From contig OZ240223.1 in assembly GCA_965197705.1 (NCBI GenBank), positions 1,796,975-1,820,974 of the forward strand: a DNA stretch of 24,000 bases, given 5' to 3'. This stretch comes from Dehalococcoidia bacterium. Lineage in GTDB: Bacteria > Chloroflexota > Dehalococcoidia > Lucifugimonadales > VXLM01. Below the pieces are notes generated by a model that saw only the letters and a program-made list of their open reading frames with translations, did no database searches and was not told where the DNA came from. The position numbers and the translations under genes were made by a program. This document shows positions 18,090 through 24,000 of the stretch, piece by piece; the stretch's first letter is position 1, and the number at the start of each line of letters is the position of its first letter.

Positions 18090-19772
18090 ATGACTACAGC
18101 TCGAAAACGACGGAAAAGCAACTCAGCTAAGGAATCGAGCGGGGACGGAGGCAACACCGCCTACCGCTCCGAGCTATGGAAGATGGCCGACGTCCTGCGA
18201 GGTGCTATGGACGCCGCCGAGTACAAGCATGTTGTCCTCGGCCTGATCTTTCTGAAGCACATCTCCGACGCCTTCGAGGAGGCCTATGCCCAACTAGAGA
18301 AGGAGATTGAAGAAGGCGCGGACCCTGAAGACCCCGACGAGTACCGCGCCCAGAGCATCTTCTGGGTGCCGCCGGAGGCGAGATGGCCGATACTCCAATC
18401 GCAGGCGCGACAGCCCACGATAGGCCGCGCCGTCGACGACGCCATGACCGCCATCGAGCGCGACAACCCCGCTCTGAAGGATGTCCTTCCCAAGGACTAC
18501 GCCCGTCCGGCCCTGGACAAGAACCGGTTGGGTCAGGTGGTCGACCTCGTCAGCAACATCAAGGTCGGCGGGGCCGATGCCCGCGCCACTGACGTGCTCG
18601 GCAGCGTCTACGAGTATTTCCTGGAGCAGTTCGCGCTGGCAGAGGGACGGAAGGGCGGCGAGTTCTACACACCTCGCAGCGTCGTGCGCCTCCTGGTGGA
18701 GATGCTACAGCCGTTCAAGGGGAGAGTCTACGATCCCTGCTGCGGATCTTCGGGCATGTTCGTGCAGTCGGTAGAGTTCATTCGCGCCCATGCCAGCGGC
18801 AACGGGAACGCCCGCCCCGGACTCCGATCCGGGGTCAGCAGGGCCAGGGGGGACATCTCCATCTACGGCCAGGAGTCGAACTACACGACGTGGCGCATGG
18901 CGAGGATGAACCTCGCGATCCGGGGCATCGAGGGCCGGATCGAGCACGGCGACAGCTTCCACAACGACCGACACCCCGATCTGAGGGCCGACTACATCCT
19001 CGCTAATCCGCCGTTCAACGTCTCCGACTGGGGCGGCGACCGGCTGCGCGACGACAGGCGCTGGGAGTATGGCGTGCCTCCCATGGGCAACGCAAACTTC
19101 GCGTGGGTGCAGCATTTTCTCTACCACCTCGCGCCGCGCGGCACGGCGGGATTTGTCCTCGCCAACGGGTCTATGTCGTCCAACCAGTCCGGCGAGGGCG
19201 AGATACGCAAGAATCTGATCGAGGCCGGTCTCGTCAACTGCATCGTCGCCCTGCCAGGCCAGCTCTTCCGCTCCACGCAGATACCGGCCTGCCTGTGGTT
19301 CCTGTCGCGGGCACGCGGTAGCGGAGAGCGCCGCGAACGTCAGGGCGAGACACTGTTCATCGACGCGCGCAAGCTGGGCCACATGATCGACCGCACCCGC
19401 CGCGACCTCACCCCGGAGGACATCGCCCGCGTCGCCGACACCTACCACGCCTGGCGAGGCCACGCCCGTCATTCCGGCGAAGGCCGGAATCCAGAGGGGG
19501 AAGGGGTGGTAGGCGATGACTACGCCGACGTCCCCGGCTTCTGCAAGAGCGCAACCCTTGAAGAGATACGCAAGCACGGCCACGTCCTCACGCCCGGCCG
19601 CTACGTCGGAGCCGAGCCGCAGCCCGACGACGGCATCCCCTTCGAGGACAAGATGTCCCGCCTCGCCACCCAATGGCGCGAGCAGCAGGCCGAAACGCAG
19701 CGGCTGGATGAGGAGATTGAGACGAATCTGGCGCGACTGGGATTTGGCGCCAATCGGGAGGATACGAGATGA
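18090..19772 (+). CDS. hsdM: Type I restriction-modification system methyltransferase subunit
   Basis: HsdM N-terminal domain ([32 protein letters not shown]), AdoMet motif [12 protein letters not shown], and catalytic ILANPPFN. The C-terminal region is [27 protein letters not shown]. Confidence 0.93.
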
Positions 19773-20077
19773 TTCCCGCGGTCGAGGAGCGAGCAGACGA
19801 GCTGGAACGTCTCTGTCTCATCTACGGCGTGCGATGGCTTGACCTGTTCGGGTCGGCCTCAACGGGTCTGTATAATTCGGATGAGAGCGACTTGGACTTC
19901 CTTGTCGAGTTCCAACCGGCGGCCCTCAATGCCTATGCGGACGCTTACTTTGGCCTGCTGGAAGCTCTCGTCAGACTCTTCGAGCGGCCTGTAGACCTCA
20001 TTGTGGAGTCGGCCATCAAGAATCCCTACTTCCTCCAGTCGGTGGAGCAGACAAGGACTCCCATCTATGAGGCTTGA
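19769..20077 (+). CDS. mntA: Nucleotidyltransferase-domain protein (MNT antitoxin of an MNT/HEPN pair)
   Basis: LFGSASTG...SDLDFLVEF is the minimal NTase GS-x(n)-DxD motif. The protein is 102 aa. Its ATG overlaps the hsdM stop (ATGA at 19769-19772). Confidence 0.85.
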
Positions 20078-20351
20078 GGCTCAGAAGTACCTATATGACA
20101 TCCAGCGTGCCGCCGGTTTGATACGAGAGTTCACCGACGGCAAGACGTTTGCGGACTACGAAGGCAACGCCATGCTGAGATCGGCCGTGGAGCGCCAATT
20201 CGAGGTCATCGGCGAGGCGATGGCCCAGCTTGCCAGGACCGATGAGCCGGTGGCTGACCGAATCAGCCAATATCAACGCATCATCGCCTTCCGCAATGTG
20301 CTGATTCATGGGTACGCCGATGTGGACGACCGGCTGGTGTGGGACGTGTGA
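20067..20351 (+). CDS. hepT: HEPN/DUF86 toxin (HepT-like)
   Basis: [19 protein letters not shown]... with the Rx4H motif in AFRNVLIHGY. I chose ATG 20067, which overlaps the mnt 3' end by 11 nt, rather than the track start at 20001. Confidence 0.85.
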   Translation: MRLEAQKYLYDIQRAAGLIREFTDGKTFADYEGNAMLRSAVERQFEVIGEAMAQLARTDEPVADRISQYQRIIAFRNVLIHGYADVDDRLVWDV

Positions 20352-20418
20352 TCCATACCAACCTCCCCAGCCTCTGTCGAGACGTTGATACTCTGTTGAG
20401 GGAGAAATAACCACGGAC

Positions 20419-20580
20419 CCGCAGCCCGACGACGGCATCCCCTTCGAGGACAAGATGTCCCGCCTCGCCACCCAATGGCGCGAGCAGCAGACCGAGGCGC
20501 AGCAACTTGACGCAGCCATTGAAGAGAACCTCAGGGACCTAGGGTTCGGTTCAAACTTAGGCGATACAAGCTCCAAGTGA
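20419..20580 (+). pseudogene. Orphan duplicate of the hsdM 3' end (last ~53 codons)
   Basis: 20419-20490 is identical to 19617-19688. It then continues in frame as a diverged tail TEAQQLDAAIEENLRDLGFGSNLGDTSSK*. An in-frame stop at 20386-20388 lies upstream and there is no start codon. Confidence 0.85.
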
Positions 20581-20653
20581 GCTGTGAGTGTCTAACTGAA
20601 GAGTGTGATGTCAATTGCAGAACCTAGGGGCTTGTACGGGATAGGGCGAGAAC

Positions 20654-23033: not shown

Positions 23034-23181
23034 CTCCCCGGCGGTGCTCATCCACGGGCCCCGTGAGTCCGGCAAGACCACACTGGCCCGTGTCGTAGGA
23101 GATCCTCGGGGATACGACTACATCAGTTTTGACGACGACATCGCCCGGACCGCTGCCACCTTGCGTACCCGTCCGTTATAG
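22972..23181 (+). pseudogene. 5' fragment of an AAA-type ATPase (AAA_14/DUF4143-like), truncated after ~60 aa
   Basis: YAEGPLVESLADSPAVLIHGPRESGKTTLARVVG (Walker A) followed by GYDYISFDDDIARTAA. Full-length relatives, as I recall them, are about 400 aa. This ORF ends at 23181, inside the palindrome that precedes the antitoxin gene. Confidence 0.5.
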
Positions 23182-23199
23182 TCTAATGTAGACTATAAC
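23175..23199. promoter_or_regulatory. Perfect 11-bp-arm palindrome, candidate operator/promoter of the Phd/PIN operon
   Basis: gttatagtcta atg tagactataac is AT-rich and lies 22 nt upstream of the antitoxin GTG at 23221. Confidence 0.5.
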
Positions 23200-23220
23200 A
23201 GTTCATTGGAGGGCCAGATC

Positions 23221-23517
23221 GTGGTTGTCTCCGAACCCCGCCGCGTGTGGACGGTTGCCGAGGCGAAGGCGAAGCTGTCGGAAGTCCTGCGTCTCGCCGA
23301 GACGGAGGGTCCTCAGCGGATTGGCGCGCGGAAGCACTTCGTCGTCATGCCCGAGAGTATGTGGCGTGCCCATGCGCCGGAGCGCAAGCCCCTCGGCCGG
23401 TGGCTCATCGAGGACATGTCGCGCGGGACCAACCTCGAAATCCCCGATCGGGGTGGCGACTCCCGTCGCGAGATACCGTTCGCGGATTGGGATGACGACA
23501 ACCGGGACGACAAATGA
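23221..23517 (+). CDS. Phd/YefM-type antitoxin (VapB-like partner of the PIN toxin)
   Basis: VWTVAEAKAKLSEVLRLAETEGPQRIGARKHFVVMPESMW is a typical Phd/YefM N-terminal fold signature. The GTG at 23221 has GGAGGG 7 nt upstream; the track start is 23206. The stop overlaps the toxin ATG (ATGA). Confidence 0.75.
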   Translation: MVVSEPRRVWTVAEAKAKLSEVLRLAETEGPQRIGARKHFVVMPESMWRAHAPERKPLGRWLIEDMSRGTNLEIPDRGGDSRREIPFADWDDDNRDDK

Positions 23518-23933
23518 CCGGATTCCTTCTCGACACGAACGTGGTGTCCGAGATGACCAAGAGTCACCCCAGCCCCCCGGTTATCGCATTTCTCGAGCAG
23601 CCGTCTGATCTGTGGCTGGCGTCAATGGTAGTGCACGAATTGGAGTTCGGATTGCGGCTCGTGCCTGCGGGACAGCGTCGAGAGCGGCTGCGAGCCGATC
23701 TGTCACGGCTCCTCACTGGCTACGCCGACCGCATACTCCCGATCGATGAGGCCGCCGCGTTGTGGGCGGCACGATTTCGGGCGAACGCCATCCGCTCAGG
23801 GCGTCCCCCCGATCTGATCGACATTCTCATCGCGGGGACGGCTAAAGCCCATGATTTGACGGTTGCCACGCGCAATGTCAGGGACTTCGAGGGACTGGGA
23901 GTTGATGTCGTCAACCCTTGGAACCCCCATTGA
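23514..23933 (+). CDS. vapC: PIN-domain ribonuclease toxin (VapC/FitB-like)
   Basis: FLLDTNVVSE (first acidic residue), VVHELEFG, DILIAGTAKAHDLTVATRNVRDF and NPW; 139 aa. Confidence 0.88.
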   Translation: MTGFLLDTNVVSEMTKSHPSPPVIAFLEQPSDLWLASMVVHELEFGLRLVPAGQRRERLRADLSRLLTGYADRILPIDEAAALWAARFRANAIRSGRPPDLIDILIAGTAKAHDLTVATRNVRDFEGLGVDVVNPWNPH

Positions 23934-24000
23934 CCTCCATCACCGAAGCCGTCGTTGAAGAGGCCGCTCTAGCATGGCTTGCAGACCTCGGCTGGAGCGT
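23930..24000 (+). CDS. hsdR: Type I restriction enzyme R subunit, 5' end only (continues beyond the window)
   Basis: The TTG overlaps the vapC stop (TTGA). MTSITEAVVEEAALAWLADLGWS matches the N-terminal pattern I recall for many HsdR proteins, and hsdM and hsdS lie upstream on the same strand. Only 23 codons are visible. Confidence 0.6.
   Translation, partial: MTSITEAVVEEAALAWLADLGWS

Follow-up and report, generated by a model that had tools for sequence, protein, structure and literature searches.

The 24,000-nucleotide (nt) stretch of Dehalococcoidia bacterium contig OZ240223.1 analysed here (assembly GCA_965197705.1, positions 1,796,975 to 1,820,974 of the forward strand; hereafter the window) ends in what is probably a type I restriction-modification (R-M) scaffold with embedded cargo in two slots, one between hsdM and hsdS and the other between hsdS and hsdR. 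The cargo amounts to three or four cassettes: an MntA/HepT pair with a frameshifted toxin, an uncharacterised open reading frame (ORF) that we call orf273, a gutted PDC-S01 ATPase, and a Phd/VapC pair. Stacked remnants of hsdR 5' and hsdM 3' ends, here and in related loci, suggest that R-M gene ends may serve as recombination anchors for cassette capture. As a tentative extension, which we hold to be possible rather than probable, R-M gene ends would act as portable anchors of an integron-like array without an integrase, the start of hsdR being kept on the last stop codon, and in one VapBC clade hsdR would be the third cistron of an autoregulated toxin-antitoxin (TA) operon. The genes and junctions of the window were read from ORF and translation positions, and domains were assigned by profile searches with Pfam, PADLOC, and NCBIfam. 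The features of the locus are as follows, each with its basis.

18090-19772, + strand: hsdM, type I methyltransferase subunit, 560 amino acids (aa), apparently intact (Pfam, PADLOC).
19769-20077, + strand: mnt, mntA-like minimal nucleotidyltransferase of the type VII antitoxin family (Pfam, PADLOC).
20067-20351, + strand: hepT-like HEPN RNase toxin gene, frameshift-shortened to 94 aa (Pfam HepT-like).
20416-20580, + strand: duplicate of the hsdM 3' end, a remnant (repeat search, alignment with relatives).
20654-21997, + strand: hsdS, specificity subunit, 447 aa, two target-recognition domains (Pfam Methylase_S, PADLOC Specificity_I).
21994-22815, + strand: orf273, uncharacterised protein family (no family match; homologs, structural model, and contexts).
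22812-22883, + strand: hsdR 5' remnant, ~18-24 recognisable codons (repeat search, tblastn, relatives).
22886-22971, + strand: three to four direct repeats with 23-nt spacing and a TTGCAA core (repeat search; same in L010, L022, and L003).
22972-23181, + strand: N-terminal fragment of an AAA_14 / PDC-S01 ATPase, ~65-69 codons (Pfam, PADLOC).
23153-23200, + strand: promoter-like site and palindrome TTATAGTCTAATGTAGACTATAA, a putative Phd/VapC operator (consensus scan, conservation).
23221-23517, + strand: phd/YefM-type antitoxin gene, in an ORF that opens at TTG 23206 (Pfam, NCBIfam phd_fam).
23514-23933, + strand: vapC, PIN-domain toxin gene, 139 aa (Pfam PIN).
23930-24000, + strand: hsdR, first 23 codons with a TTG start, continuing past the window (identity to L003 HsdR).

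A preliminary description of the same DNA had given this gene order, these remnants, and these ORF positions, and had listed six start/stop overlaps. All were recovered at the same bases: ATGA at 19769-19772 (hsdM/mnt), 11 nt at 20067-20077 (mnt/hepT), ATGA at 21994-21997 (hsdS/orf273), TTGA at 22812-22815 (orf273/hsdR remnant), ATGA at 23514-23517 (phd/vapC), and TTGA at 23930-23933 (vapC/hsdR). Extra genes are nested among the R-M core genes and all lie on the + strand, as in the embedded systems of Payne et al. (2024, doi 10.1101/2024.01.29.577857).

The R-M core itself is readily recognised. HsdM matches Pfam HsdM_N and N6_Mtase (E 6e-102 and 2e-26) and PADLOC MTase_I (E 7e-204). HsdS aligns at 24-447 with PADLOC Specificity_I, a profile of 446 positions; Pfam detects the first of its two target-recognition domains only. 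The 71 nt of hsdR that lie within the window (23 codons) are 91% identical to the N-terminus of a full-length HsdR (1049-aa ORF) in the related locus L003. GC content changes in steps along the locus, from 65-67% in hsdM to 57% in mnt-hepT, 47-50% in orf273, and 63% in vapBC-hsdR, so that orf273 stands at 47-50% against 63-67% for hsdM and hsdR. A terminator scan found no terminator-like sites between the genes on the + strand of the locus, and Rfam, tRNA, and terminator scans of the window returned nothing relevant.

Cargo is bordered by partial R-M gene ends in both slots: an hsdM 3' end follows mnt-hepT, and an hsdR 5' end precedes the ATPase/VapBC block. The hsdM 3' duplicate (20416-20570) is 77% identical to 19614-19768, with a fully identical core of 72 nt (19617-19688 / 20419-20490) and tails that are only ~58% identical. 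The identical core suggests that the two copies may have undergone recent gene conversion, or that they meet at a chimeric recombination joint at ~19688/20490. Similarity to relatives, used to decide which copy of the hsdM 3' end arrived with mnt-hepT, gave no decision. On the hsdR side, the remnant (22812-22864) is 77% identical to 23930-23982, and its start has decayed to TTG from the ATG found in L001, L002, L163, and L169. Such hsdR 5' copies are stacked in relatives as well. The window, L001, and L002 hold two each, L023 three, L003 three (at 6414, 7571, and 8417), L163 three (at 8813, 9376, and 9836), and L007 three to four, and each stacked piece comes after a cargo unit.

Between the hsdR remnant and phd lies the ATPase fragment, which matches Pfam AAA_14 and positions 12-68 of the 422 in PADLOC PDC-S01, the remainder being deleted. 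A full-length ATPase of 450 aa stands next to phd-vapC in L010. The direct repeats (RGTTGCAATCNGNCG, with a palindromic core of TTGCAA) reach the ATPase ATG, and they also precede the full-length 450-aa gene in L010 (6166-6232) and L022 (from 6138); the same 23-nt-spaced repeats occur in L003 at 6480-6555. Judged by this position, the repeats are probably a regulatory leader of the ATPase cassette. We had considered them as a Tn7- or Tn402-like transposon end and rejected this, since they reach the ATPase ATG in L010 and L022 and a promoter/operator leader fits better.

Two of the relatives deserve separate mention. In L010, positions 5806-6165 hold an antitoxin-like ORF of 100 aa and, after it, a PIN toxin (RYLLDTNIICN...) that breaks off after ~20 codons and is followed by the repeats. 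It seems that insertion of the ATPase cassette, together with its repeat leader, interrupted a further vapC-like gene here. L023 (2400-8720) is a graveyard in which an intact phd-vapC is surrounded by pieces of R-M genes: one from the hsdM 5' end, two from the hsdM 3' end, one from the hsdS 3' end, and three from the hsdR 5' end. No complete R-M gene remains around phd-vapC there, which shows that the TA module outlives its R-M host.

The related loci used throughout were collected via homologs of orf273, VapC (80 genome loci), and MNT (80 metagenome loci). Against these, the window is a mosaic. Its hsdM (85% nt identity) and the segment 23151-24000 (94.8%) are closest to L003, a Dehalococcoidia metagenome-assembled genome, and 21937-22865, a segment that takes in the second half of hsdS together with orf273 and the hsdR stub, matches L002 at 93% identity. 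The contents of the slots vary among relatives. Between hsdM and hsdS, MntA/HepT is found in the window and L087, DUF2442 in L002 and L163, MazEF in L003, and a 278-aa ORF in L171; L001, L003, L163, and L171 also carry an NTase_sub_bind HEPN gene followed by a fusion of MNT to HsdS. Between hsdS and hsdR, the window has VapBC and ATPase debris, L001 has Fic, L002 the Fic 3' tail only, L163 HicB and DUF433, L169 TIR-TIR-8xMP, L171 HicAB, L003 an ABC ATPase, TIR-8xMP, and VapBC, and L087 DUF2806/Abi_alpha. Closely related backbones with different cargo in both slots argue that the slots are hot spots of exchange and not parts of one fixed integrated machine.

One junction recurs in spite of this turnover. 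The VapC set comprised 25 close loci (VapC identity of at least 53%) and 55 distant ones, annotated by tblastn with the window proteins. Type I R-M genes adjoin 12 of the 25 close loci and none of the 55 distant ones (p = 9e-8). In at least 9 of the 25, the vapC stop overlaps codons for the HsdR N-terminus (MTTITEADVE...). The HsdR N-terminus alignment scores at the vapC stop are 27-81, where the 99.9th percentile of the background is 26. The overlapping hsdR is full-length in L003 (ATGA) and L007 (TTGA) and is covered in two overlapping pieces in L016 (GTGA). L004, L005, L009, L011, L015, and L023 join vapC to an hsdR stub only, irrespective of other R-M genes nearby. Other cargo also ends on the hsdR start: 8xMP (ATGA; intact hsdR in L169, stub in L003), a 373-aa ORF in L007, DUF2806 in L087, and orf273.

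The TA pair itself belongs to known families. VapC matches Pfam PIN (E 1.5e-12), scores below the cut-off of the NCBIfam VapC models, and is 93% identical to its L003 counterpart; an exact look-up of this VapC in public assemblies returned no record. Phd is below the cut-off for Pfam PhdYeFM, scores 23.4 bits with NCBIfam phd_fam (cut-off 20.8), and is 97% identical to that of L003. A PIN toxin is preceded by a small antitoxin gene with an ATGA overlap (23514-23517), the arrangement of a type II TA system. Of the two candidate phd starts, GTG 23221, with a GGAGG Shine-Dalgarno (SD) sequence upstream, is more likely than TTG 23206. Neither this VapBC clade nor orf273 matched a PADLOC model.

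Upstream of phd, a consensus scan found a promoter-like site, CTGCCA-18-TATAGT, overlapped by the palindrome. The arms of the latter (GTCTA-N3-TAGAC), the -10 element, and the -35-like element are kept in 9 of 10 aligned sequences of the clade, the window included. The palindrome is a probable Phd/VapC operator with the classic layout of a TA operator. The start of hsdR is poorly equipped in the window, with a TTG codon and a ribosome-binding motif reduced to GGA seven to ten bases upstream; a full-length hsdR (1047-aa ORF) with a TTG start also occurs in L007. From the putative promoter/operator, the vapC/hsdR overlap, and the weak hsdR SD we infer that phd, vapC, and hsdR form a unit and that the output of HsdR would track TA autoregulation and vapC translation. 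Read from the sequence in this way, phd-vapC-hsdR is probably one autoregulated unit with hsdR as its third cistron, and a dependence of hsdR translation on vapC is plausible.

The overlaps carry less weight by number. Of the six, no more than three connect cargo with an R-M gene that is still live; a further two lie inside TA pairs, and the last, orf273/hsdR remnant, leads into a dead remnant and is a relic. Within the window, 5 of 7 junctions in the locus overlap vs 1 of 7 housekeeping junctions (proC/yggT, 16314-16317), and with a Fisher p of 0.10 the overlap count was rejected as a statistical anomaly. It is conservation of the junctions across genomes, not the number of overlaps, that lifts them above chance. 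The mnt ATGA was weakened as a sign of design, given that nearly all MNT homologs start ATG-A.. and hsdR starts ATG-ACC; the TGA lies inside the start of the downstream gene, so any upstream ORF in a suitable frame stops there.

The preliminary description had suggested counting how often MNT/HEPN and VapBC modules occupy exactly these junctions. Among the related loci, vapC/hsdR recurs as described above, hsdS/orf273 is found in seven loci, and the hsdM/mnt ATGA recurs in L087. The same description had each inserted module wired to an R-M subunit, and this was not supported. Backbones with parts 85-95% identical carry different cargo; mnt and orf273 have strong SDs of their own inside the upstream genes, so they could be translationally coupled but need not be; and the conserved promoter-like site and palindrome before phd argue against the locus being a single obligatory transcription unit.

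Its count of three toxin-type modules also needs amending. The MntA/HepT and Phd/VapC families were recognised as such; orf273 has no toxin signature and HepT is frameshifted. MNT matches Pfam NTP_transf_2 (E 5e-10) and PADLOC PDC-S09 (E 2e-30) and contains the motif LFGSASTG...SDLDFLV, and its gene lies upstream of hepT and overlaps it, as is typical of a type VII MntA; the NCBIfam MntA score is 30 against a cut-off of 60. With its ATG, mnt overlaps the stop codon of hsdM, whose 3' end contains a GGAGG SD. HepT residues 12-94 align with positions 1-105 of the 120 in Pfam HepT-like (E 3e-18), and the Rx4HxY motif is present as FRNVLIHGY. A 2-nt insertion near 20340, in a GTGTG run, brings on a stop at 94 aa, and the C-terminal helix that is lost (IHTNLPSLCRDVDTLLREK*) can still be read in another frame as far as ~20409. 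Homologs with a full-length match have 112-116 aa in 34 of 41 cases. The window holds an intact mnt beside a HEPN RNase gene that falls short of full length, and the frameshift reflects either decay of the toxin or an error of assembly.

The MNT set of 80 metagenome loci was annotated by tblastn with the window proteins, and many of its contigs are short. In it, type I R-M genes adjoin the MNT/HepT pair only in L086/L087, in addition to an hsdR upstream of MNT in L125; L089 and L095 have a distant hsdR-like match ~3 kb downstream of MNT/HepT. In L087, which shares the hsdM/mnt ATGA junction, HsdM is 72% and MNT 74% identical. In L083, which has the nearest MNT (83%), an hsdM-tail stub (...GFGVNREEAG*) still precedes mnt. 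Elsewhere, the N-terminus of HsdS carries an in-frame fusion to an MNT/Polbeta domain of ~100 aa (L001 8081-10004, L003 2479-4538, L163 5907-8004, and L171 2723-4685), each fusion being preceded by an overlapping NTase_sub_bind (HEPN-like) gene, and ~30 of the top 120 database homologs combine Polbeta with Methylase_S. On domain content, such a fusion would tie a HEPN/MNT-type module covalently to the specificity subunit. No description of it was found in the literature searched.

For orf273, searches of Pfam, PADLOC, NCBIfam, and PHROGs gave no family match, which leaves the toxin-type label for it unsupported. It has 296 detectable homologs, all without annotation. In 7 of 10 contexts examined the gene lies directly 3' of hsdS, and the 4-nt overlap with hsdS is kept in seven loci, at protein identities as low as 55%. 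In the other contexts its neighbours are an unknown protein of 938 aa or else TIR, transposase, or DUF433 genes. In L166 (5172-8855) and L168 (1957-5640), distant homologs (45% identity) lie outside R-M loci, immediately behind the 938-aa protein, which has no annotation, and a HigB-like pair; orf273 may work with different large partners.

An AlphaFold (AF2) model of orf273 built from 43 sequences (pLDDT 83.8, pTM 0.81) has a helical domain followed by a beta-rich domain. A Foldseek search of the PDB with the model returned no solved structure below E = 1. Its weak top matches include HEPN proteins, all with E > 1 and TM <= 0.25, and a profile search of PDB sequences was negative. Within the family, R76 is invariant and H81 near-invariant (LRSALDHL; 43 homologs). 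Model and motif make a HEPN-type protein a lead only. One viral protein without a name is a clear structural homolog (E 1.7e-13, TM 0.65). In a comparison with PrrC, neither sequence nor fold similarity was found.

The sequence of events that we favour would run as follows. Cassettes would arrive by recombination that has its anchor in hsdR or hsdM, the long conserved genes of the R-M system, and is completed by another join nearby, illegitimate or based on short homology. With each event, cargo next to hsdR or hsdM would be copied from the donor and part of the recipient gene end would be left behind as a stub, older cargo would stack outward with successive captures, and start/stop overlaps would travel with the cassettes rather than be built in place. 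In the VapBC clade, a Phd/VapC-autoregulated promoter would drive phd-vapC-hsdR, hsdR would be translated via coupling to vapC termination, and HsdR supply would follow the state of the TA module; were hsdR indeed the third cistron, antitoxin loss by stress or phage shut-off would raise HsdR. Several points weigh against this account. The window shows 71 nt of hsdR only, and the phd promoter and operator are predictions from consensus and conservation. The hsdR of L001 has no good SD even behind an intergenic spacer, and since relatives' hsdR genes also lack a strong SD, the weak one here is no proof of dependence on vapC. The identical 72-nt hsdM core beside ~58% tails requires the added assumption of gene conversion or a chimeric joint. 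Stub lengths run from 45 to ~310 nt, for which transfer of a single repeat-flanked cassette is insufficient; independent events or later deletions are needed. The hepT frameshift could stem from assembly error. Finally, the comparison set is small and biased, having been fetched via VapC, MNT, and orf273 homologs, and consists mostly of metagenome-assembled genomes from similar samples.

Three other explanations were weighed. The preliminary description favoured functional integration over random co-location: coupling would force toxin modules and restriction into co-expression, as an addiction device or as a layer of abortive infection added to R-M. PrrC guarding EcoprrI would be the model for such a unit. 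Part of this stands. The vapC/hsdR overlap is kept at VapC identities of 58-93%, and where hsdR is intact the overlapping codon is always able to serve as a start (ATG, GTG, or TTG); the hsdS/orf273 overlap is conserved to 55% identity; relatives fuse an MNT domain in frame to HsdS; and PrrC and DarTG2 are precedents for embedding in type I R-M. The linkage of vapC/hsdR and of hsdS/orf273 is non-random and inherited. Turnover of cargo, which differs in every related backbone, speaks against a fixed machine, and in L004, L011, L015, and L023 the hsdR stub stays with VapBC even though no R-M gene survives there, so the link is structural and historical and not needed for function. With HepT frameshifted, MNT/HepT relatives mostly free-standing, and phd under a putative promoter and operator of its own, we consider functional integration of the toxin modules with restriction unlikely.

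Alternatively, the R-M system may no longer be functional, the overlaps, stubs, and fragments being debris of a defence island in which TA genes persist by their own addiction. An insertion sequence that stops ~10 nt from the hsdM start, the frameshifted HepT, an ATPase cut to ~65 codons, two R-M gene stubs, a TTG start for hsdR, and the L023 graveyard, in which the same VapBC is set among pieces of hsdM, hsdS, and hsdR, would all agree with such decay. Yet hsdM, hsdS, mnt, orf273, phd, and vapC are given as intact full-length ORFs with full-length profile matches, the closest relative L003 keeps a full-length hsdR (1049 aa) in the same arrangement, and the full-length hsdR of L007 (1047 aa) starts with TTG too, which makes decay an improbable account. 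More improbable still is site-specific insertion, integron-like or integrase-mediated, at the hsdR start, with the hsdR 5' pieces as att-like sites. Cargo-stub units are indeed stacked in one orientation, several cargo types stop exactly on the hsdR ATG, and large serine recombinase genes lie upstream of the L001 and L002 loci. Stubs of 45 to ~310 nt share no core boundary and so argue against one site-specific core; moreover, no recombinase lies within or beside the window slots, the hsdM-side duplicate has a different geometry, and the ATGA overlap is automatic with an hsdR that begins ATG-ACC.

The insertion sequence belongs to the IS630 family (16575-18079, + strand; NCBIfam transpos_IS630 on both ORFs, inverted repeats, and flank comparison). 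Its 34-nt inverted repeats (16575-16608 / 18046-18079) are 82% complementary. It sits between yggT and hsdM and has two overlapping transposase ORFs, probably frameshifted. The right inverted repeat stops ~10 nt before the hsdM ATG, and at this distance the native hsdM promoter has been displaced; hsdM may be transcribed out of IS630, or silenced. Just upstream of related R-M loci there are large serine recombinase genes (Resolvase, Recombinase, Zn_ribbon_recom) in L001 (1-473) and L002 (604-2193), from which whole related R-M loci may sit on integrative elements.

Embedding is now used to find new immune systems, and Payne et al. (2024) state the route of cargo entry and its functional effect as unexplored. 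The locus offers footprints that can be tested: R-M gene-end stubs around cassettes, a toxin stop on the hsdR start, and a putative TA operator positioned so that it could control hsdR. If general, these patterns would explain near-universal co-orientation and rapid turnover of defence cargo and would supply a rule for delimiting cassettes, and orf273 and the MNT::HsdS fusions would become candidates for experimental work. If they are not general, the locus is one more heavily loaded defence island.

Type I R-M operons are already known to carry embedded defence and TA genes (PrrC, DarTG2, PIN toxins, Payne et al. 2024). The conserved vapC/hsdR junction, the putative TA operator before hsdR, and the stacked R-M gene-end stubs appear not to have been described in the literature searched. 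Payne, Hughes, Fineran, and Jackson (2024, doi 10.1101/2024.01.29.577857) found embedding in type I R-M to be frequent and 96.7% co-oriented, with a significance that "remains to be explored"; embedded genes occur also in BREX, DISARM, and Hma systems, and the PADLOC PDC models were built from such genes. The window resembles their cases in that its MNT matches PDC-S09 and its ATPase fragment matches PDC-S01, co-oriented between hsdM, hsdS, and hsdR. In contrast to the present analysis, recombination, overlaps, translational coupling, and operons were absent from the main text of that paper in a term search, and with them start/stop overlaps, R-M gene-end remnants, stacking, and a TA promoter that drives hsdR. 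A survey of PIN genes (2017, PMC5499597) placed VapC-type genes in operons with HsdM, HsdS, and HsdR, in arrangements that vary between close species; it does not describe a vapC-stop/hsdR-start junction as conserved, nor hsdR stubs that accompany VapBC.

The TA modules follow their known counterparts, type VII HepT/MntA (Shewanella SO_3166/SO_3165) and type II VapBC, in antitoxin-then-toxin order, overlapping frames, and the MNT GSx10DxD, HEPN Rx4HxY, and PIN signatures. They differ in the frameshift-shortened HepT, in NCBIfam scores below equivalog cut-offs, and in the antitoxin of VapC, which is Phd/YefM-type and not AbrB- or MazE-type.

Homology-facilitated illegitimate recombination is known in transformable bacteria, and was reportedly described by de Vries and Wackernagel in 2002. 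Saunders and Snyder are said to have described, in 2007, "minimal mobile elements" exchanged between conserved flanking genes. The window is similar in that cargo without mobility genes is swapped between conserved flanks, and a one-sided anchor with an illegitimate join gives partial target duplications. It is dissimilar in that its anchors are R-M gene ends and its cargo stacks; the mechanism is one that we infer.

PrrC/EcoprrI (hsdM-hsdS-prrC-hsdR) has a latent RNase gene between hsdS and hsdR, and orf273 occupies the same position and is likewise mostly embedded. PrrC is kept inactive by R-M proteins and has no antitoxin gene, whereas two of the window modules bring their own antitoxins; and orf273, unlike PrrC, has no ABC-ATPase or recognised nuclease domain. 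In the RRDM island of enteropathogenic E. coli, a DarTG2 TA pair between hsdS and hsdR is controlled by RptR, and the island provides phage defence (Zhang et al. 2025, PMC12255303). There, too, a complete TA pair fills the hsdS|hsdR slot, and the RRDM operators, three direct repeats with a 6-bp palindrome, are reminiscent of the TTGCAA repeats of the window. The toxin family is a different one, DarTG, and a single upstream repressor gene regulates RRDM; the window, by comparison, has no RptR-like gene, carries IS630 upstream, and has its putative TA operator directly before phd-vapC-hsdR.

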